A DNA stretch of 12,497 bases from a virus (lineage: Duplodnaviria > Heunggongvirae > Uroviricota > Caudoviricetes): the IMG/VR virus record IMGVR_UViG_2859799533_000004; one strand, written 5' to 3'. Below the pieces are notes generated by a model. That model had not been told where the DNA came from. It searched no databases and saw only the letters and a list, made by a program, of their open reading frames with translations. The stretch's first letter is position 1, and every line of letters begins with the position of its first letter. Below, one piece after another: positions 1,836 to 11,036 of this stretch. The position numbers and the translations under genes are program-made.

Positions 1836-2210
1836 ATGAATACTGGATATTCTCCCGAACAAGGGCGGGGCTTCGTTCGTCCTGAAAAACAGAATCTGCA
1901 AAATTTTGCCGAAATTATTCCGGTTATTTCCGGCCTTACTGGCGGGAGTGAAACCAATATTGTTAACGCCAGAGCGTTGCAGATGTTTGATGATAAAAAG
2001 GGAGTAAATTTAACTTACACCCCTGACGGCAATCAGAATATGAGCATTATCTCTGAGTCAGGTTTCTACAAACTAATAAAAACAAAAAGCGCCCCGTTGC
2101 CGGAGCGCCTTTGTGAACAATTAACCTACTGCGCAAAAAATGAATCTGAGCAGTGGGATTATATCAACCATGTGGAGAAGCGCCACAATTGCCGAATAAC
2201 GGGCAAAACA
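1836..2210 (+). CDS. Possible Bro-N-like (antirepressor-type) protein fragment; 3' end undefined because the frame stays open to 3260
   Basis: N-terminal ~125 aa are protein-like and contain a Bro-N-like motif (DDKKGVNLTYTPDGNQNMSIISESGFYKLIKTKS). The remainder of the 474-aa ORF is Cys/Ser/Arg-rich and antisense to better-supported minus-strand genes. End coordinate is nominal. Confidence 0.3.
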
Positions 2211-2311
2211 AAGGCCACCCGCTACGGTGGCCCCTCGACACAAGCTACACGTTATCCCCAACGCATGAGCATTGCCAACAATGCCACATTTGCGGCTGGT
2301 GGGCAATGCAA

Positions 2312-2500
2312 TCAGTCTGGTTCAGTTCGTTGCCATACCTGCAATGAGCGCTTTTCCCTGTACTCTTTAAGGAATTGCTCAAGGGCAAAAGCACATGGCG
2401 CGAATCTTTCTGATTCATGCTCTATCTTTCTGCGCCGTCTTTTCCGTGCCGGTGATAATGTTTTGGTCAATTCTTTATCGGTCATTGTGTTGTCCTGCAT
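2312..2500 (-). CDS. Small basic protein (57-62 aa), second gene of the leftward pair; function unknown
   Basis: ORF with an RRRRK basic patch. An internal ATG at 2485 has a better SD (AGGA, 7-nt spacer) than the ATG at 2500. Lies 42 bp downstream of the RHH-like gene. Confidence 0.45.
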   Translation of the reverse strand: MQDNTMTDKELTKTLSPARKRRRRKIEHESERFAPCAFALEQFLKEYREKRSLQVWQRTEPD

Positions 2501-2542
2501 AGCAATGCGCCGTAATACCTTACACCACGGCGCTGATGGTGA

Positions 2543-2848
2543 TTACTCTGGTTCTTTGGTCTTGCGGCGCTGGAGTTCTTCACGTGCGACAGTGACGAGC
2601 TGCCCGATCTCCTCGGCGGCTTTGATTCCGAGTTTTTCCACCTGCGCCAGTGCATCGAGCGAAGAAACCAGGGGATTTTCTCCACTTCCTTCTGCCTGGC
2701 GCCGGGCGATCTCACCGCGTACAGCCGTAACTATAAAATTCGCTTTAGTTTCCCCTGGCTGTAGGGATGCCTCAATGCCACTCACTACTTCATGTGGAAA
2801 TCTGGCATTCAGTTGCTGTGACTTATTGTTAACAGAACTCCTGGACAT
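2543..2848 (-). CDS. Putative transcriptional regulator, possibly ribbon-helix-helix type; candidate island repressor (or antitoxin)
   Basis: 101-aa protein from ATG at 2848 with strong SD (GGAGGTG, 5-nt spacer). N-terminal pattern NARFPHEVVSGIEASL...TKANFIVTAVRGEIARRQ fits a beta-strand plus two helices. It is transcribed divergently from the main operon across the operator palindromes. Confidence 0.55.
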   Translation of the reverse strand: MSRSSVNNKSQQLNARFPHEVVSGIEASLQPGETKANFIVTAVRGEIARRQAEGSGENPLVSSLDALAQVEKLGIKAAEEIGQLVTVAREELQRRKTKEPE

Positions 2849-2891
2849 GTTTGCACCTCCCATTAATAACGGGATGCAGTGTAATACAAAA

Positions 2892-2946
2892 GTGAATACC
2901 AAAAAAGACTTGAAATGGTATTCACCTAAATGTAATGTGAATACCA
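2892..2946. promoter_or_regulatory. Operator region: three copies of GTGAATACCA forming two overlapping perfect 10-bp-arm palindromes between the divergent genes
   Basis: GTGAATACCA at 2892-2901, TGGTATTCAC at 2916-2925 (inverted), GTGAATACCA at 2937-2946; read directly. Confidence 0.6.
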
Positions 2947-2984
2947 CAAGTGCTGATACATGCAATTCAGCAATTGAAACGACG

Positions 2985-3017
2985 AAGCCCCGCACTGTTG
3001 GAGCAGTAACGGGGCTT
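2985..3017 (+). promoter_or_regulatory. Imperfect long hairpin in the leader of the rightward operon
   Basis: AAGCCCCG(2985-2992) pairs with CGGGGCTT(3010-3017), extended by CACTG/CAGT. No following T-run, so it is not a classic terminator. Confidence 0.3.
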
Positions 3018-3053
3018 CTAACCACCAACGATAACGAGAGTATCGAGGTAGCT

Positions 3054-3260
3054 ATGAGAAATCATACCACACACCCGCAAGGGCGGGACTCGCACAACCT
3101 GAATAAATACATCTGGCGTTTTATCGCCCTGAGCACTGCACAACCGCGCGTGATTACCATTGAGGCCACCAGCGAACAGGAAGCACGCCAGCAATCCCCG
3201 GCTGGCTGCGTGATGGTATTCGCTGCCCGTATTCGTCAGGAGGTGTGCCATGTGCAATAA
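3054..3260 (+). CDS. Small protein (68 aa), first gene of the rightward operon; tentatively Icd-like (P4 cell-division-inhibitor family)
   Basis: ATG 3054 with SD GAGGT (4-nt spacer). Protein-like sequence YIWRFIALSTAQPRVITIEATSEQEARQQ...VMVFAARIR. The family assignment is from memory and unverified. Its stop overlaps the next start. Confidence 0.5.
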   Translation: MRNHTTHPQGRDSHNLNKYIWRFIALSTAQPRVITIEATSEQEARQQSPAGCVMVFAARIRQEVCHVQ

Positions 3261-3474: not shown

Positions 3475-3832
3475 CCTGTCAATTTCTGACCTTAACAGCA
3501 TTCAGTTTGACGAGAAATTTACCGGGCAGTTGCTGGTCAATGTGGAGAACGGGCGCATAGTGCGTAATTATCACCTGCCGGATGGTGCAATTGCCGGAAG
3601 CGTTGAAGCATTGCTGGAACTGGCGGAACGTGCGCGACTGATTAAGCCGTCAACGAGCCATCACGATGATGATCTGCATTTTACCGGATGTATGGTGAGT
3701 CACTACGAAAACGGCGTCGAGGTATCCTGCGAACGGCTGCGTGATGATTGCTGTTTCGGCACACTGCCGGAATTTATCGAGTTGCTGACCAGTTGCGGTT
3801 ATCAGGTCATTCAGGGGGGTAAACATGCGTGA
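3467..3832 (+). CDS. Hypothetical protein (121 aa)
   Basis: Start placed at ATG 3467 (MHNLSISD...) because AGGAGG sits 7 nt upstream; the ORF-track start at 3449 lacks an SD. Coupled to its neighbours by ATGCATAA and CATGCGTGA overlaps. Confidence 0.6.
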   Translation: MHNLSISDLNSIQFDEKFTGQLLVNVENGRIVRNYHLPDGAIAGSVEALLELAERARLIKPSTSHHDDDLHFTGCMVSHYENGVEVSCERLRDDCCFGTLPEFIELLTSCGYQVIQGGKHA

Positions 3833-4289: not shown

Positions 4290-4589
4290 ATGAAACTTAA
4301 ATATTCTGGCTTAACTGCCAGTGGCAACACTCACCCTAAATTTACGCGCGGTGATATTTACCGCGACCAGTACGGCGGCACGGTAATGATTAAGGGCGTG
4401 GAAGAACGGCGTGTAACCTACCGCCGTGAAGGTTACGAATATGATTGCGTGATGCCTGTTTATCAGTTCCGGCGTGATTTTTCTCTGGTACAGACCGCGC
4501 CGCATAACGTGCCCACCAGCAACGCCAGGGCACGGGCAAACATCCAGAAGCTGAAAACCATGGTTAACGGATTCAGGGGCAAGAAATGA
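4290..4589 (+). CDS. Hypothetical protein (99 aa) immediately upstream of, and coupled to, the replicase gene
   Basis: ATG 4290 with GGAGA upstream; its stop overlaps the rep start (ATGA). Confidence 0.65.
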   Translation: MKLKYSGLTASGNTHPKFTRGDIYRDQYGGTVMIKGVEERRVTYRREGYEYDCVMPVYQFRRDFSLVQTAPHNVPTSNARARANIQKLKTMVNGFRGKK

Positions 4590-5884
4590 AAAGCGCACCG
4601 AACTTAAAAAAACAGCCTTACGACAAGATGACCGAAGTCATTATTTTTGCGGGTAGTGATGCCTGGGCACATGCGAAACAGTGGCAGGAACAGGACGGGC
4701 GACTGGCTGGCGATAATGTGCCTCCCGTTGTGCTGGCTGATGATCAACTGGATGAACTGGCAGACCTGAGAATCATCGACGAGGGGCGCTATTGTGTCCG
4801 GCTGTACAAGGCAGGCCACATCAGGCCATCAAATATTAATGCCATTGCGCACAAGCTGGCGGCGGCGGGTGTAACTGATGCGAATTATTACCCCGAAGGG
4901 ATGCACAGCCATATGCGGGAGAACTGGCGCGAATACCTGGAACGGGTGCGCGGGAAAGAGCCGGCGGAAGAAAAAAACCACCAGCGAAAAACCACGCTAC
5001 CGATGAGCGTTGGATCTACCGGATACGACACGCAACTGGATTACGTGGTTAAGGGGATTATTCCGGCGGTATCGCTATGCAGCATATACGGAGCTAGCGG
5101 GTCCTATAAATCATTCCTTGCCGGATCGTGGGCGTGCCATGTTGCCACTGGTCGCCAGTGGGGAGGCCGCAGGGTTGCACATGGTGCGGTTCTCTATGTG
5201 GTTGGTGAAGGCGGTATAGGTGTTCCGCGTCGTGTAAAAGCCTGGGAGGTTGTGCACGATGAGCAGGTGAAAAATCTGTATCTGGTAAACCGCCCCATCT
5301 TTCCGGCTGCCCCGCTTGATGTTGATGAAATGGTTATCGCTGCCCGTCAGGTGGAGCGGGAAACGGGTAAACCTGTACGCATGATTATTCTGGATACGCT
5401 GGCGCGTTGCTTTGGTGGGAATGATGAAAATGATTCCCGTGATATGGGGGCGTTTATCCGTGGTTGTGACGAACTGAAACGACGCACAGGGGCCACGGTG
5501 CTGGTGGTTCACCATTCCGGCAAGGATGAGACGAAAGGCGCGCGCGGTTCCAGTGCATTTCGTGCTTCGCTGGATGCTGAATACCGGATACGCAGGGAGG
5601 ACGCAGGAAGCGAAGCGCTGGTTATCTCATGCACCAAAATGAAGGACGCGGAGGAACTCAAAGAAGCCGCATATGACTTACGCGTGGTGGAGCTTTTTAC
5701 CGACGCTGACGGTGAATTAATCACGTCGCTGGTGGTGGTGGATGATCCGCGCCCTCCTGTTGAACTGGAGCGCATCGAGGAGGCAGGGAACAAGACGGAA
5801 AACCATACCGCGCTATGGGGTGCATCCGTTCACGCACACAGAACGGCGACAAGTGCACGATCCCGCTGTTACGTGATGACATGA
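4586..5884 (+). CDS. Replication protein: RepA/DnaB-like RecA-fold P-loop ATPase (AAA_25-type helicase core) with ~150-aa N-terminal extension
   Basis: P-loop region IYGASGSYKSFLAGSWACHVATG (5090-5113), Walker B VRMIILDTLARCF, and the family-typical VLVVHHSGKDETKGARGSSA motif. The Walker A is non-canonical (Tyr where the Gly before Lys is expected). Confidence 0.82.
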   Translation: MKSAPNLKKQPYDKMTEVIIFAGSDAWAHAKQWQEQDGRLAGDNVPPVVLADDQLDELADLRIIDEGRYCVRLYKAGHIRPSNINAIAHKLAAAGVTDANYYPEGMHSHMRENWREYLERVRGKEPAEEKNHQRKTTLPMSVGSTGYDTQLDYVVKGIIPAVSLCSIYGASGSYKSFLAGSWACHVATGRQWGGRRVAHGAVLYVVGEGGIGVPRRVKAWEVVHDEQVKNLYLVNRPIFPAAPLDVDEMVIAARQVERETGKPVRMIILDTLARCFGGNDENDSRDMGAFIRGCDELKRRTGATVLVVHHSGKDETKGARGSSAFRASLDAEYRIRREDAGSEALVISCTKMKDAEELKEAAYDLRVVELFTDADGELITSLVVVDDPRPPVELERIEEAGNKTENHTALWGASVHAHRTATSARSRCYVMT

Positions 5885-5985
5885 AAAAGCTGGGGTATGA
5901 AATGAAAAACTTCCGGCGCTGGCTGTACAAGCTGGAAAAAGATGGGGTTATTCGTATCGATGGGGATGATGTAGCGCCGCTATAA
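5881..5985 (+). CDS. Small ORF (34 aa) overlapping the rep stop (ATGA); may be a frame-shifted C-terminal part of the replicase rather than a separate gene
   Basis: The +1 frame from 5764 reads as protein-like sequence (..GDKCTIPLLRDDMKKLGYEMKNFRRWLYKLEKDGVIRIDGDDVAPL) whereas the annotated rep tail (HTALWGASVHAHRTATSARSRCYVMT) does not. Confidence 0.3.
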   Translation: MKKLGYEMKNFRRWLYKLEKDGVIRIDGDDVAPL

Positions 5986-6177
5986 AAGTGAGGAGCAAAA
6001 GCGAGGGGGATAGAAAGAGGGCCAAAATTAGCCCGCTCTCCCTCACTTTTCGACCTGTATACATCCTCAAAAGTGAGGGGTAAAAAAATACTTATGAAAC
6101 ACACACATAGAAAAACCGAAAATCCCAACTGCGACGAAGTGAGACGCTTGAAAAAGTGAGGCGAAAAAGTGAGAGGT
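5984..6177 (+). repeat. Iteron cluster, probable replication origin, with central AT-rich unwinding segment
   Basis: AAAAGTGAGG at 5984, 6069 and 6152; AAAAGTGAGA at 6166; variants AAAAGCGAGG (5997) and GAAGTGAGA (6135); an inverted copy CCTCACTTTT (6041-6050); AT-rich stretch 6080-6130. Directly downstream of rep. Confidence 0.7.
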
Positions 6178-6185
6178 TGCGAGAA

Positions 6186-6437
6186 ATGACCCAAAAACGC
6201 AGAGACAGAACAGAGCCAAAATATAAAGCGTTAGACATGACTGAGCACACCTTAAAGGTGGCAATCAGAACGATAGACCGCCACACGCGGGAAGGATACG
6301 CGAAGGAACATCCCGACCTGATAAGCGCATTCATGACCACGGCGGCGGCAAACTTTGCCACGCTGACAGAACGGGAGATTGCCGAAGCGGAACAGGTAAC
6401 AACCATCAACGTTAAAACCGGAGAGGTGGAATCATGA
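6186..6437 (+). CDS. Hypothetical protein (83 aa) overlapping the origin and coupled to ssb
   Basis: Start at ATG 6186 within ORF 6156..6437; stop overlaps the ssb start (ATGA). Confidence 0.5.
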   Translation: MTQKRRDRTEPKYKALDMTEHTLKVAIRTIDRHTREGYAKEHPDLISAFMTTAAANFATLTEREIAEAEQVTTINVKTGEVES

Positions 6438-6856
6438 CAGCACAGATAGCAGCTTACGGGCGGCTGGTGGACGACCCGCAGGTAAAACAGACCAGCAAGG
6501 GCACACCAATGACGCTGGCACGTATGGCGGTCCCCCTTCCGTGCAGCCAGGCAGATGACGGAACGGCGACGATGTGGTTATCCGTCCTGGCATTTGGCAG
6601 ACAGGCCGAAGCACTGGAAAGGCACCGCAAGGGTGAACTCCTGAGCGTGGCGGGTAACATGCAGATCAGCCAGTGGACTGGGCAGAACGGAGAAACGCGG
6701 CAGGGCTGGCAGGTTATCGCAGACAGTGTAATCAGTGCGCGAACGGCGCGACTGGGCGGCAAAAAAGGTCAACAGGGCCAGGCTACTGACGCGCTGAACA
6801 GGGCAAAACAACAGGCGGGGAATGATGATCCGTACGGGGATAACATACCGTTTTAA
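6434..6856 (+). CDS. ssb: Single-stranded DNA-binding protein (SSB, OB fold with acidic C-terminal tail)
   Basis: N-terminal pattern MTAQIAAYGRLVDDPQVKQTSKGTPMTLARMAV and C-terminal ...DDPYGDNIPF, which parallels the E. coli SSB tail DDDIPF. Confidence 0.85.
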   Translation: MTAQIAAYGRLVDDPQVKQTSKGTPMTLARMAVPLPCSQADDGTATMWLSVLAFGRQAEALERHRKGELLSVAGNMQISQWTGQNGETRQGWQVIADSVISARTARLGGKKGQQGQATDALNRAKQQAGNDDPYGDNIPF

Positions 6857-6872
6857 GCGACGAGTGACAGAA

Positions 6873-6894
6873 GCCGGAGCAATCCGGCTTTTTT
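6873..6894 (+). terminator. Rho-independent terminator after ssb
   Basis: GCCGGA-gcaa-TCCGGC hairpin followed by TTTTTT. Confidence 0.7.
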
Positions 6895-6990
6895 ACGGGG
6901 CCTCCTGGCGGGGTGGGCCTGAACACGGGGCGGGAGGCGCGGAAAAAAGCGCATTTTTGTGATTTTATCGTCATCATCATCATGAGCGTA
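6895..6990 (+). other. Degenerate cos-like element (S1), a diverged paralog of the cos region at 9335-9420
   Basis: ACGGGGCC..TGG...ACGGGGCGGGAGGCGCGG aligns with cosQ/cosN of S2, but the cosN core is altered and 2 nt shorter; CATCATCATCAT parallels CACCACCACCAC downstream of S2. Confidence 0.45.
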
Positions 6991-7075
6991 ATTTATTGTT
7001 TTTAATTGTTTTGATGCAAAAAAGATGATGGTTATGGTTAATTTTTGTTCGACATCTTTGCAGGCAGATAAAAAA

Positions 7076-7110
7076 GCCCGATAAGGTCAGAGGTGGCTTA
7101 TCGGGCTTTT
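7076..7110. terminator. Strong bidirectional hairpin terminator
   Basis: GCCCGATAAG-N11-CTTATCGGGC (10-bp perfect stem) flanked by an A-run upstream and a T-run downstream. Confidence 0.6.
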
Positions 7111-7186
7111 GCATATGAGGCTTTTTGGTGCACTGACACACATGATCGGGATAATCATTTCATAATTTGCAACACAACTCAATATC

Positions 7187-7271: not shown

Positions 7272-7478
7272 ATGGCTGAAGAGAAAAAAGGCGGTGTTTC
7301 GGTGTACATAAGCCCCGAAATCGTGGAGGTGCTCAAGCAGCGCCACAAAAAAAACTATGAGGCTGGCGTGGCGGCTGGACTGGATCCGCTGATGACGCCG
7401 GAGCCGTCGATAGGTTCACTTGTACGCTCTTATTTACTTGCGGCGCTTGGGATGCATAAAAATTATGGGGGTGAATAA
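7272..7478 (+). CDS. Hypothetical protein (68 aa), first gene of the capsid operon
   Basis: ORF with GAGGA upstream; its stop overlaps the capsid gene start (TAATG). Confidence 0.55.
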   Translation: MAEEKKGGVSVYISPEIVEVLKQRHKKNYEAGVAAGLDPLMTPEPSIGSLVRSYLLAALGMHKNYGGE

Positions 7479-8533
7479 TGGCAGGCAAAGCAACGGCACT
7501 TAACACTCACCAGCTTTTTGCGTACCTGAATCGCGGGGATATTGCGGAATTTAAATTTAGTCCGCTGTTTACCACGCTGTTTTTCCCGAAAGTAGCGACA
7601 TTCAACACCCAAAACATCATGCTGGATAACCTGGACACCGAAGAAGTCACTATGTCAGCGTTTTGCTCGCCTATGGTTGGTAGCCAGGTACAGCGCGATA
7701 AAGGGTACGAAACCAGCACGATTAAACCTGGCTACATGAAGCCAAAGCACGAAATCGATCCAACAAAAACCATCATGCGCATGGCTGGAGAAGATCCGGC
7801 ACAGCTTAACGACCCAACCTATCGCCGTATGCGCCTGATTACTGGCAACATGCGCCGCCAGGTAAACGCTATTAAAGCGCGTGTTGAATGGCTGGCGGTA
7901 AATGCGGTAACGACCGGAAAAAACATCATTGAGGGCGAAGGCATAGAACGCTATGAAATCGACTGGAAGATGCCGGAAAACAACATCATAGAGCAGGCCA
8001 AAGGCCGTAAATGGTCCGAGCAGGACAAAGAAACCCACGATCCAATCTATGATATCGAGCTTTATGCGGATCAGGGCAATTGCCCCGCAAACGTCATGAT
8101 TATGGGCGCTGAGGTATGGCGCACGTTACGCAGCTTTAAAAAATTCCGCGAACTGTACGATCTTTCCCGTGGTTCAGAATCCGCCGCAGAACTGGCCTGT
8201 AAAAACCTGGGCGAAGTGGTGAGCTTTAAAGGCTATCTGGGCGATATTGCCCTTATCGTCTATTCCGGCAAATACGCCGACAGCGACGGCACCGAAAAAC
8301 ATTTCCTTGAGCCTGATTTGCTGGTCTTGGGCAACACCAACAATAAAGGGCTGGTTGCTTATGGTGCGATTATGGATCAGGAAGCGGTAAGAACGGGCGC
8401 AACGCAAAACATGTACTACCCGAAAAACTGGATTGAGGACGGCGATCCGGCGATTGAGTACGTGCAGACGCACAGCGCACCGCAGCCGGTGCCGGCAGAC
8501 ATTCGCAAATTTGTTACCGTCAAAATTGGTTAA
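7478..8533 (+). CDS. Major capsid protein, phage lambda gpE family
   Basis: 351 aa. Shares multiple blocks with lambda gpE as recalled: FKFSPLF..LFFP, PGYMKPKHE, EDPAQLNDPTYRRMR, RGSESAAEL..LGEVVSFKGYLGDIALIVYSGKY, YPKNW, GDPA. Similar length to gpE (341 aa). Confidence 0.85.
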   Translation: MAGKATALNTHQLFAYLNRGDIAEFKFSPLFTTLFFPKVATFNTQNIMLDNLDTEEVTMSAFCSPMVGSQVQRDKGYETSTIKPGYMKPKHEIDPTKTIMRMAGEDPAQLNDPTYRRMRLITGNMRRQVNAIKARVEWLAVNAVTTGKNIIEGEGIERYEIDWKMPENNIIEQAKGRKWSEQDKETHDPIYDIELYADQGNCPANVMIMGAEVWRTLRSFKKFRELYDLSRGSESAAELACKNLGEVVSFKGYLGDIALIVYSGKYADSDGTEKHFLEPDLLVLGNTNNKGLVAYGAIMDQEAVRTGATQNMYYPKNWIEDGDPAIEYVQTHSAPQPVPADIRKFVTVKIG

Positions 8534-8544
8534 CGGGGGATTCT

Positions 8545-8880
8545 ATGAACACTCCATACATTGAGTTATTTGCAGGCAGTCAGCAGGTATCCACGACGCT
8601 GGTACATTTTGCCGCTGATGCTGGCGTCATTCAGGAATTTACCCCGCTGATGCTGGCGGACAATGGCGAGTTTAAGCCGTGGGATGGTCAGGCGTCCGGA
8701 AAGGCTGTTTATCTGACTTCGTACCCCGTGGACACGTCAAAGCAGAAATCAGCACAGTGCTACAAGACGGGGATCTTTAATATCGCCGCCGTGAACTGGC
8801 CCGAGAGCGTCGACACCGATGCGAAAAAATGCGCCGCCTTTGCGGGTTCTGGCGTATCCGTTCAGCCGCTGGCCCGATAA
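8545..8880 (+). CDS. Head decoration protein, phage lambda gpD family
   Basis: 111 aa versus 110 aa for gpD. Shared motifs TPLMLAD, WDG, YKTG.F, WPE, KK.AAFAG. Confidence 0.78.
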   Translation: MNTPYIELFAGSQQVSTTLVHFAADAGVIQEFTPLMLADNGEFKPWDGQASGKAVYLTSYPVDTSKQKSAQCYKTGIFNIAAVNWPESVDTDAKKCAAFAGSGVSVQPLAR

Positions 8881-8892
8881 GCAGGGGGAACG

Positions 8893-9306
8893 ATGGCAAC
8901 GAATGAAAGCATCATGACGCTACCGCTGGCGAGTAAATTTAAAGCCGAAGCGCGGGCAATGGCTGACAGAGGTTTATCAACCTACGAGGCCGTATATCAA
9001 CTCAACAAACTGGAAGAGCAGGACAAGCCGCGCGCTGATGCGATTATGGCGCTTCATGAGCATAACGACTATCAGCCGCTGTTACGTGCAATGGCAAACG
9101 TGCCTTGTATCGATGTTGGTACGGCTAAAAGCATCCTTAGCATGACCATAGAGCAGGAACGCCAGAAGGTTGCGCCGGAGCTTACCGCAGCCTTTGAAAA
9201 CTTTATGGACATGCACAGCCCGCAAGCCGTTTCAGCTGGCATGGCATACGACGGCAGAAACCCGGGCGATGATGGCGACATCGAGAGCATACTGAAAACC
9301 ATCTGA
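8893..9306 (+). CDS. Hypothetical protein (137 aa), last gene of the capsid operon, immediately upstream of cos
   Basis: ORF with GGGGGAA SD; no family recognised. Candidate packaging accessory protein by position only. Confidence 0.6.
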   Translation: MATNESIMTLPLASKFKAEARAMADRGLSTYEAVYQLNKLEEQDKPRADAIMALHEHNDYQPLLRAMANVPCIDVGTAKSILSMTIEQERQKVAPELTAAFENFMDMHSPQAVSAGMAYDGRNPGDDGDIESILKTI

Positions 9307-9311
9307 GACAA

Positions 9312-9334
9312 GGCCGGAGAAATCCGGCTTTTTT
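9312..9334 (+). terminator. Rho-independent terminator after the capsid operon
   Basis: GCCGGA-gaaa-TCCGGC hairpin plus TTTTTTT; nearly identical to the terminator at 6873-6894. Confidence 0.7.
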
Positions 9335-9420
9335 TACGGGTCCTTTCCGGCATATGGACCCGTTACGGGGCGGCGACCTCGCGGGTTTTCGCTATTTATG
9401 ACGTTTTTCCGTGAAGGTGA
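9335..9420 (+). other. Lambda-type cohesive-end site (S2): cosQ, cosN and the start of a lambda-like cosB
   Basis: ACGGGTCCTTTCCGG...GACCCGTTACG then GGGCGGCGACCT (9367-9378) CGCGGGTTTTCGCTATTTATGA matches the lambda right-end/left-end junction as recalled; followed by CGTTTTTCCGTG, resembling lambda R3. Confidence 0.85.
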
Positions 9421-9468
9421 CACCACCACCACTTGATTAATATTTAACCATGCAGTTAAGGTAACATT

Positions 9469-9909
9469 ATGATTGATAAAGCTTGTTTTGTAAGTCAGCA
9501 GGAAATAGCTGAACATTTCAAGGTTAACAGAACCACTATTCGCGCATGGACCAAACAGGGGATGCCGTATCTTAATGCGGATCGCGGAAAGTCTGGCGGT
9601 TATCACATCGGGCATACATTGCTTTGGTCTTCAGGTAAAAGCCGTCTTGAGGCCATCAGATATCACGTAGAAACCAGTGCGCTGGAAAAAATTATGTTTG
9701 CCAGGCTGCTTTCATCTGAGCGTGACGAGTACTCCAGTGAAGAAACAGAACATAGATTTGATGAAGGTTTACAGATTTACGGCTACTCACCGGAAGAAGT
9801 GAGCAAAGCGCGAAATAAAATGGCCGGCTTTCTGGCTGGGTGGCGTCATGCCGTAAGCGTTCGCCGTGCCAGCATGGAACAATCAGTCGTTACAGAACAG
9901 CAAAGTTAA
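9469..9909 (+). CDS. Small-terminase-like protein with Nu1-type N-terminal winged-HTH; candidate island packaging-specificity factor
   Basis: N-terminus VSQQEIAEHFKVNRTTIRAWTKQGMPYL parallels lambda Nu1 VNKKQLADIFGASIRTIQNWQEQGMPVL; the C-terminal half is unrelated to Nu1. Gene sits directly downstream of cos, as Nu1 does in lambda. Confidence 0.72.
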   Translation: MIDKACFVSQQEIAEHFKVNRTTIRAWTKQGMPYLNADRGKSGGYHIGHTLLWSSGKSRLEAIRYHVETSALEKIMFARLLSSERDEYSSEETEHRFDEGLQIYGYSPEEVSKARNKMAGFLAGWRHAVSVRRASMEQSVVTEQQS

Positions 9910-9939: not shown

Positions 9940-10090
9940 CAATACAACAACCACGTATTTTTTTAAAACTATTTGATTCAATTAGCATTTTTTTATTTTT
10001 AGCATCAAAAAAACACTATCAGGTTGTTGTATTGCTCTTTATTTTTACTTAGTTATCAAATGGATATGACAAACAATTAAACAACAACCT
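9940..10090. promoter_or_regulatory. cosB-like region for the inverted cos: three ACAACAACC sites in alternating orientation with an intervening partial IHF motif
   Basis: GCAATACAACAACC (9940-9953, +), GGTTGTTGTATTGC (10022-10035, inverted, perfect 14-bp IR), ACAACAACCT (10081-10090, +); TATCAAatggATA at 10054-10066 matches WATCAA of the IHF consensus but not its TTR end. Confidence 0.4.
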
Positions 10091-10103
10091 CCCTCTAAAA
10101 AAG

Positions 10104-10169
10104 CTCATAAATAGCGAAAAACCGCGAGGTCGCCGCCCCGTAACGGGCCATAATTCCAGGAAGGACCCG
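10104..10169 (-). other. Second lambda-type cos site (S3) in inverted orientation
   Basis: Reverse complement reads CGGGTCCTTCCTGG..GGCCCGTTACGGGGCGGCGACCTCGCGGTTTTTCGCTATTTATGA; the cosN 12-mer is identical to S2 (complement at 10127-10138), and the flanks are about 85-90 percent identical to S2. Confidence 0.8.
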
Positions 10170-10652: not shown

Positions 10653-10931
10653 ACAATCCCCCATTGGGGAGGCTGGGCGGCCTGCTGTGGGCTTTTCCAC
10701 CATTGGTGGAAAGGCGCACATCTGGATCATCATTACGGTGATCAAGGGTATGTAAAACCCACCAGCCTGATTGACATTTAACCGGAAAAAAGCCAGGTAG
10801 CCCCGTTATGGGGATCCCCATATCGACATTAACGCCCCTCATGAATTGGCGCGCTTCCCCCTGGAAAGATGACCCGCCTGTATATTTCTTGTGTCTATTT
10901 GTTCCACGTTGTTTCATACAGTGCAACGATC

Positions 10932-10955
10932 GGTGTAGTTAATGGTGTAGTCAAT
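10932..10955 (+). repeat. Tandem 12-bp direct repeat GGTGTAGT(T/C)AAT
   Basis: Two adjacent copies, 11 of 12 identical, followed by a GCACT-N5-AGTGC dyad, in the region downstream of phoQ. Confidence 0.45.
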
Positions 10956-11036
10956 TTGCGATTTTTAGCACTTTTGCAGTGCAAATCATTTAATTAAATC
11001 AATGGCTTGCCTTGATGTAGTGATAAAAGGACATAT

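Follow-up and report, generated by a model that had tools for sequence, protein, structure and literature searches.

Results

Gene content of the island

The window analysed here is a stretch of 12 497 nucleotides (IMG/VR record IMGVR_UViG_2859799533_000004). It is 99.86% identical to the genome of E. coli 2017C-4173W12 (NZ_CP030768.1), with 15 mismatches and three 1-nt gaps in homopolymers, and contains an island of about 11 kb with roxA on one side and phoQ on the other. The gene order begins with the integrase (1–1230), AlpA (1427–1783) and a DUF4222 protein; the gene for a RepA-like helicase starts at 4586. The ssb gene (6434–6856, plus strand) was recognized by Pfam (SSB, E = 4.9e-15), is annotated by PGAP as single-stranded DNA-binding protein and has 378 relatives in IMG/VR. 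We refer to its 3' flank as site A.

A capsid module with PHROG matches (7272–9306, plus strand) comprises a 68-aa ORF, a lambda-E-like major capsid protein (7478–8533, plus strand; Pfam Phage_cap_E, E = 4e-50), a gpD-like decoration protein (8545–8880, plus strand; Pfam HDPD, E = 6e-18) and, as the last ORF on the same strand, a 137-aa protein. The module is 94% identical to the c1499/c1500 region of EcCICFT073 (PMC6092414). The rpp gene (9469–9909, plus strand) encodes a 146-aa redirecting phage packaging protein, with a match to RppC (PDB 6HLK, E = 2.4e-31); its homologue in EcCICFT073 shares 97% of the residues. The rpp gene is followed by that for a 93-aa protein, and phoQ occupies the right end on the minus strand. 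At 10921–10956, 36 nt repeat the stretch that immediately precedes int in the RefSeq genome (97% identical); this repeat is the probable attR core, which would give the island its length of about 11 kb.

Strain CFT073 carries EcCICFT073 at the same roxA–phoQ site, and the two islands are 94–99% identical over int, over the capsid module with rpp and over the segment from S3 (see below) to phoQ. Because of this identity at the same site and of the Rpp match, we classify the window, judged by its sequence, as an EcCICFT073-type PICI, a phage satellite of E. coli. The features of this group (int, alpA, a replication module, cos sites, rpp and the roxA–phoQ site) are all present. Three AAAAGTGAGG-type iterons, spaced by 85 and 83 nt, are located at 5984–6195 just 3' of the helicase gene and are probably the replication origin of the island; with iterons at this position, downstream of the helicase gene, the cos-like unit S1 described below was rejected as an origin.

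Terminators and cos-like units around the capsid module

The preliminary description had reported near-identical terminators, each followed by cos-like sequence, at 6873–6990 and 9312–9420. Both are present there, and hairpin plus T-run form a direct repeat (D14) with 21 of 22 positions identical (6873–6894 vs 9313–9334). The ssb terminator hairpin GCCGGAGCAATCCGGC (6873–6888, plus strand), with six Ts at 6889–6894, abuts the upstream unit, S1. It folds with −15.4 kcal/mol (z = −4.1), which none of 200 shuffled sequences attained. The hairpin GCCGGAGAAATCCGGC (9313–9328, plus strand), with seven Ts at 9329–9335, precedes the downstream unit, S2, and folds with −14.2 kcal/mol (0/200 shuffles). 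These U-run hairpins are found 17 nt past the ssb stop and 7 nt past the stop of the 137-aa ORF, respectively, and thus show the features of Rho-independent terminators, as which both (6873–6894 and 9313–9335) are predicted. A consensus terminator scan listed neither of the two, and folding was used instead.

S1 contains the cosQ-like heptamer GGGGCCT (6897–6903, plus strand), which matches GGGTCCT in six of seven positions and has the correct distance to cosN (in lambdoid cos sites GGGTCCT is expected about 20–25 bp upstream of cosN). The cosN-like core ACG/GGGCGGGAGGCG (6925–6939, plus strand) departs at a single base from that of the Stx2d phage, GGGCGGGCGGCG; its twofold symmetry extends to 8 of 16 positions, vs 10 of 16 in lambda and in the Stx phage. 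The right arm (6938–7059, plus strand) is a phage-type cosB with a TCGTCATCATCATCAT block at the position equivalent to R3. A second strong hairpin, AAAAAAGCCCGATAAGG...CTTATCGGGCTTTTGC (7070–7112, plus strand; inverted repeat I9), folds with −25.6 kcal/mol (z = −4.0). In four islands without S1 (L008, L069, L072 and L075) it directly adjoins the ssb terminator hairpin.

Two other explanations of the S1 region were discarded. Since the segment 6895–6990 folds like shuffled sequences (z = −0.5) and an Rfam scan of the whole window returned no family, S1 is not regarded as a structured RNA. A 66-aa minus-strand ORF overlapping S1 (6783–6983) is considered spurious, having neither a Pfam match nor a PGAP call.

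S2 (9338–9432, plus strand) is a lambda-class cos. Its cosQ (GGGTCCT, 9338–9344) and its cosN (GGGCGGCGACCT, 9368–9379, within ACG/GGGCGGCGACCT at 9365–9379) are identical to those of lambda. A CACCACCACCAC block at bp 48–65 (9415–9432) has the position proposed for R3-PICI (PMC9026076). The sequence of S2 is the same as that upstream of rpp in EcCICFT073.

A third copy, S3 (10098–10169, minus strand), had been overlooked in the preliminary description. It is an inverted lambda-class cos (inverted repeat I1; cosQ 10162–10168, cosN 10127–10138) that is 86% complementary to S2 over 72 nt, retains GGGTCCT and GGGCGGCGACCT intact and is also present in EcCICFT073. S3 and its CFT073 counterpart lack homology in the right arm (about 10040–10100); sequence homologous to CFT073 sets in at 10097, near cosN. 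S2 and S3 flank rpp, as do the two lambda-type cos sites published for EcCICFT073, of which they are the equivalents; which of the published names (cos1 or cos2) S2 should bear we infer from its adjacency to rpp.

Comparison of S1 with S2 and with phage cos regions

S1 and S2 share the hairpin, the cosQ-like heptamer and ACGGGGCGG, all at the same spacing. The block of hairpin, T-run and cosQ reaches a local alignment score of 47, compared with 16.2 ± 2.4 for shuffled sequences, none of which (0/2000) reached 47. After removal of the hairpin, a strict local alignment is left with the 9-mer ACGGGGCGG alone, which is not significant (280/2000 shuffles), whereas a colinear global alignment gives 56 of 99 identical positions (z = 4.4, 0/3000 shuffles). 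The pairwise test of the two junctions that had been suggested (6873–6990 against 9312–9420) thus succeeds for the hairpin/cosQ block and for the colinear alignment and fails for the strict local one without hairpin. Pairwise similarity outside the hairpin is modest. Because the strict local alignment is not significant, paralogy cannot be based on the pairwise comparison, and phage databases were used.

The phage comparison independently showed the derivation of S1 from a cos site, by 93% identity to phage cos regions. The segment 6890–7059 is 93.4% identical over 170 nt (156 of 167 ungapped columns) to positions 3501–3670 of the Stx2d phage Stx2_112808 (L004), and about 91–93% identical to the corresponding region of VT1-Sakai. 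In both phages the matching segment is the intergenic region between Rz and terS. The alignment spans cosQ, cosN and about 120 nt of phage cosB; the right arm of S1 (6938–7059) is colinear with the cosB of Stx2d_112808 inside the 93.4% match and falls into a right-arm cluster (R0) that joins S1 with Stx2d and VT1-Sakai phages. Among deposited phages, nine Stx-phage records match S1 at 90–92%, with E-values down to 2e-37.

That the similarity of the two junctions is limited to a generic Rho-independent terminator, with chance matches between GC-rich sequences, could be argued from the non-significant local alignment. It is contradicted by the significance of the colinear global alignment and by the match to phage cos regions (E = 2e-37), so that we give this explanation practically no credence. 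S1 is like S2 because cosQ and the left half of cosN are common to all lambdoid cos sites, and because the island family repeats the unit of terminator followed by cos.

The differences between S1 and the Stx phage are few. The cosN cores (GGGCGGGAGGCG vs GGGCGGGCGGCG) differ by a single base (A for C) and the cosQ sequences are GGGGCCT vs GGGTCCT, in addition to a few other substitutions; GGGTCCT is found in all six phages compared, among these lambda, Stx, cdtI, 1720a-02 and CP-1639. The upstream hairpin is the GC-rich ssb terminator in S1 and an AT-rich hairpin in the phage. In the lambdoid phages compared (lambda, L111/L112; L004, L005 and L107–L110) an AT-rich palindrome with T-run, e.g. 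ATGATAATCATTATCAC-TTT, is located immediately upstream of cosQ, which mirrors the layout of GC-rich terminator and cosQ in the islands.

In the preliminary description the S1 core was taken for a degenerate lambda cosN. The database records of the phages cdtI, Tritos and mEp460_4F5, however, start exactly at GGGCGGG, and that of cdtI ends with ...CCACG, just as the lambda record ends with ...TTACG and starts with GGGCGGCGACCT. As records begin and end at these cores, the cores are cohesive-end sites of other lambdoid phages and not wrecked lambda sites. The island of strain Rb-3 has a GGGCGGGAGCG... core both after ssb and after the capsid gene. Given this core at both junctions and phage records that begin with GGGCGGG, the degenerate-lambda reading was dropped in favour of another lambdoid cos class, the one to which S1 is 93.4% identical over 170 nt (Stx2d_112808). 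These alignments show S1 to be an almost complete cos unit of lambdoid type, with cosQ, cosN and cosB, which belongs to the Stx2/VT1-Sakai class and is not a decayed S2. With S1 being an Stx-class and S2 a lambda-class cos, the capsid genes of the island would be flanked by packaging sites of two classes of helper phage.

Site A and site B in the island family

Genes and cos-like sites were typed in a sample of 80 ssb-containing IMG/VR loci and in reference islands. Site A is defined as a cos-like unit about 70 nt past the ssb stop, directly after the ssb terminator, and site B as a second cos after the capsid module, located upstream of rpp, of an island terS or, in helper-embedded satellites, of nothing. 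S1 occupies site A of the window, and S2 is its site B. A site A is present in 58 islands, namely in all 35 with a ClpP-MCP fusion module and in 15 of 34 with an E/D module, these being the two kinds of capsid module found between sites A and B. The bracketing of the capsid module by terminator-plus-cos units, which had been noted for the window, is found again elsewhere in the PICI family, around either of two unrelated capsid modules and in several cos classes.

For 54 of the 58 islands, site A has a right arm that shares a cluster (at least 85% identity) with cosB from a sequenced phage. The clusters are those of Stx2d/VT1-Sakai (15 islands, including S1), 1720a-02/CP-1639 (25) and cdtI (14). 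At site B the right arm is island-specific wherever rpp or terS comes next.

Site A is less constrained than site B. Non-canonical cosQ sequences occur in 22 of 58 copies at site A vs none of 55 at site B (Fisher p = 5e-8, the samples not being independent), and variants of the cosN core number 12, length changes included, vs 7; the degenerate cosQ GTAGGTACT accounts for 18 of the 58. This agrees with the earlier view of a decayed cos upstream and an intact one downstream, in so far as the upstream copy is the less constrained of the two in the family.

The frequent combination of a phage-like cosB with an altered cosQ and cosN core at site A, for example in L007 (right arm of 1720a-02, cosQ GTAGGTACT), would fit a decoy, in which the cosB of S1 binds the small terminase of Stx-class phages without productive cutting and so hinders phage packaging. 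With one DNA site in each copy of the island the sink is weak, though, the interference published for the family acts through the Rpp protein (PMC6739421), and most S1-type copies have an intact cosQ. We consider a decoy function improbable.

L007 and L003 are helper-embedded islands of O157:H7 and O121:H19, inserted in a prophage terminase gene. Their site A (6440–6560 in L007, 5480–5600 in L003) has a right arm matching the cosB of 1720a-02 and CP-1639, the cosQ GTAGGTACT and an altered cosN core. At site B they have a clean cos of the Stx class, which makes two types of phage cosB per island. In L002, the Rb-3 island at the cspD–clpS site, site A (7497–7600) matches cos and cosB of cdtI (GGCGGCGGCAGC block), and site B (10031–10130), upstream of an island DUF1441 TerS homologue, has a different right arm (TCGTCGTCATCATC).

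Proposed exchange at cosN and mobility of the capsid cassette

The arms to the left and right of cosN were grouped into 10 and 11 clusters, respectively, of which 21 combinations were observed. So many combinations suggest that the cosN region acts as a joint, where left and right cos arms could be exchanged together with the modules attached to them. In S1, all diagnostic positions left of cosN agree with site A of L029, while the right side is of the Stx phage/site B type, and the switch between left and right falls inside the cosN core.

The preliminary description had proposed that the capsid operon is a cassette inserted at a cos junction, and that relatives lacking the operon should have a single one. 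This holds for L045 and L050, capsid-less islands with the order int...ssb–terminator–cos–terS on a 7.3-kb contig. Their only junction is a hybrid of the upstream left arm and the downstream right arm: at every diagnostic position it is of the site A type on the left and of the site B type from overhang position 12 rightward, which places the crossover between −9 and +12. The bracketed layout and the single junction of capsid-less relatives support the general picture of a cassette at a cos junction.

A pair of cos sites in direct orientation could lead to loss of the capsid module by homologous recombination, or else by packaging from site B to site A and subsequent joining of the cohesive ends. 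The latter would work as in cosmids, which are packaged from one cos to the next, and such packaging with rejoining predicts exactly the junctions with A on the left and B on the right that are seen.

S1 itself is separable from the capsid operon. Islands lacking it differ from the window by a clean gap of about 174 bp, in place of S1 (6895 to about 7068). L069 has the ssb hairpin and the second hairpin of the window with GCGCCC alone between them, the situation in L008, L043, L072 and L075 is similar, and EcCICFT073 has perC in place of S1. In all of these the E/D capsid operon of the window is present, as are cos1 and either rpp or terS.

These relatives bear on the more specific proposal that S1 is a decayed duplicate of the lambda-type cos, one that stayed behind on the upstream side after insertion of the capsid operon at a single cos junction. 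The direct repeats of terminator and cos around the capsid module and the single junction of capsid-less relatives would suit it. However, EcCICFT073, L008, L043, L069, L072 and L075 keep the operon without S1, some with identical capsid operon and flanks (in L069 with GCGCCC between the hairpins), and in EcCICFT073 the position is taken by perC. Moreover, S1 is 93% identical to a different class of phage cos, cosB included, and 57% identical to S2 outside the hairpin. A decayed duplicate is therefore very unlikely.

Distribution of S1

The segment comprising ssb, S1 and the spacer was found with at least 80% query coverage in 167 of 5426 complete E. coli genomes. The 81-nt core of S1 is present with at least 99% identity in 16 genomes and with 95–99% in 143, i.e. 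in about 159 of the 5426. One of the carriers is Nissle 1917, with 80 of 81 positions identical (NZ_CP058217.1, 1700108–1700188). When GTDB genomes were scanned for exact copies of the S1 core, the outcome was uninformative, with three unrelated matches (two in Paracoccus and one in Rhodobacter).

In IMG/VR the exact cosN core of S1 has 17 matches, every one on a contig of 14.6 kb or shorter, and none on a phage-sized contig; the best match among deposited phages is 92%. The cosQ could be read in 16 of these copies, the 17th ending before cosQ and being left out of the count. It is GGGTCCT in 13, GGGTTCT in two and GGGGCCT, the sequence of the window, in one. The window thus carries a minority allele. 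The S1-type islands are very alike, and conservation of S1 among them therefore says little about selection.

Genomes with S1-type islands, including the near-identical RefSeq genome and that of Nissle 1917, have a single place matching the S1 core. From this it follows that no prophage with an S1-class cos resides in those genomes.

Possible function of S1

The reading that we favour, with a probability of roughly 0.55, is that S1 is a phage-type cos for a second class of helper phages, which is usable or was so until recently and would be independent of Rpp. A helper of the Stx/VT1-Sakai class, whose TerS is a DUF1441-family protein, would bind a cosB of its own type at S1, and its terminase would cut between 6927 and 6928 and package rightward. 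Helpers of the lambda, phi80 and 21 type would use S2 by means of the Rpp–TerS complex, as published for EcCICFT073, and the island could then be mobilized by two classes of helper. The canonical cosQ of most copies and the occurrence of the S1 core in about 159 complete genomes are in favour of a usable site. Evidence against a present function comes from the absence of the exact core from all phages found and of a matching resident prophage, from the variability of site A across the family, from the cosQ of the window (GGGGCCT) and from the dispensability of site A, S1 being absent from EcCICFT073, an island that is mobile experimentally.

In lambda, single changes in cosQ impair termination. 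Since its cosN core is one base off any phage core found and its cosQ has a T-to-G exchange, the copy of S1 in the window may be impaired, especially for termination. Across the family, the cosQ mutations at site A could reflect either decay or selection to block termination there.

It is possible, if somewhat doubtful in our judgement, that S1 is a non-functional scar that persists only by being recent, a decaying pseudo-cos produced by recombination or cos-to-cos joining at cosN between the site A next to ssb and an Stx-class cos. Its chimeric structure with the switch within cosN would be explained in this way, as would a cosN core equal to that of no phage found, the mutated cosQ of the window and the two GGGTTCT alleles. 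Many relatives have a degenerate site A (18 of 58 carry GTAGGTACT), there are mobile relatives without S1, and S1-bearing genomes are devoid of a resident prophage with matching cos. Against a relic speak the right arm, which is still about 93% identical to phage cosB over about 120 nt, and the canonical cosQ of most copies. Furthermore, a phage-type cosB is present at site A in 54 of 58 islands and in three types, which suggests repeated acquisition or maintenance and not a single accident.

A more elaborate proposal, which we put forward tentatively and regard as rather unlikely, takes sites A and B as two cos sites that function together. At site A there would be a regularly renewed copy of the helper's cos, serving helpers which neither Rpp nor an island TerS can redirect, and site B would be the island-specific cos. 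The staggered cut at cosN would be the joint for arm swapping: cutting by terminase and rejoining of cohesive ends would swap arms and modules between satellites and helpers, yielding capsid-less derivatives as well as chimeric cos sites such as S1. The cosQ mutations at site A would then have been selected against a premature termination that drops the capsid cassette.

Discussion

Relation to known satellite cos sites

Cos sites of satellites are already known. For the EcCICFT073 family cos1, cos2 and Rpp have been described, and for helper-embedded satellites a cos shared with the helper. EcCICFT073 has two functional lambda-like cos sites, cos1 and cos2, without a phage cosB; Rpp–TerS heterodimers redirect the helper terminase to cos1, and transfer does not need the capsid homologue c1499 and the decoration homologue c1500 (PMC6092414, PMC6739421, PMC9026076). 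Rpp binds the TerS of lambda, phi80 and 21-type phages (PMC6739421, PMC9026076). The island of the window belongs to the same family, is integrated at the same site as EcCICFT073 and has its genes in the same order (Fillol-Salom et al., 2018, PMC6092414; 2019, PMC6739421). The published sites lack a phage cosB, whereas S1 is of another cos class and has a cosB of the phage type.

Among phage sites, the cos of Stx2_112808, VT1-Sakai and related Stx2a phages shares with S1 the spacing of cosQ and cosN and the cosB block TCGTCATCATCATCAT. In these phages cos precedes terS; S1, in contrast, precedes capsid genes and has no terS next to it. The lambda cos (GGGTCCT, GGGCGGCGACCT, cosB with R3-I1-R2-R1) has in common with S1 the position of cosQ, ACG/GGGCGG and the layout, but differs in the second half of the cosN core and in the entire cosB.

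The helper-embedded satellite 11capE shares a cos segment of 258 bp with its helper (bioRxiv 10.1101/2022.07.18.500453) and, like the S1 island, is a satellite with a near-copy of a helper cos including cosB. The islands L003 and L007, inserted in a prophage terminase gene, are of the 11capE type. In 11capE the phage-type cos is the main cos and is located downstream of the capsid gene, whereas S1 precedes the capsid module and is additional to a main cos of another class. Like the island of the window, the staphylococcal island SaPIbov4 is a satellite to which more than one cos site is ascribed, two putative ones being mentioned (PMC6092414). This is a Gram-positive system with unrelated sequences, and there is no evidence that its sites derive from two classes of helper. 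Our literature search found no account of a cos position conserved after ssb, of hybrid junctions at cosN or, for EcCICFT073-type islands, of a cos belonging to a second helper class.

PICIs of the EcCICFT073 family are a model of how satellites hijack lambdoid phages, and their packaging has so far been explained by a lambda-type cos together with Rpp. If our reading of S1 is true, one island could be mobilized by several helper lineages, Shiga-toxin phages included, and the additional cos classes at site A (Stx/VT1-Sakai, 1720a-02 and cdtI) would bear on the host range and the spread of these islands. Arm swapping at cosN, together with the hybrid junction, would offer a concrete and testable route by which satellites gain or lose a capsid module.

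Further observations on the window

The three homopolymer runs in which one base is missing relative to NZ_CP030768.1 are located at positions 1471, 5817 and 10666 of the window. The gap at 5817 shortens the ORF of the RepA-like helicase, which has 432 residues vs 466 in the PGAP annotation. These gaps may be sequencing errors or real frameshifts. An open frame of 474 codons at 1836–3260 is absent from the PGAP calls, which contain minus-strand genes of the YlcI/YnfO family and a short Icd-like gene in this region instead. The amino terminus encoded by this frame weakly matches Ant/BRO families, and its carboxy terminus matches PHROG families annotated as repressors.
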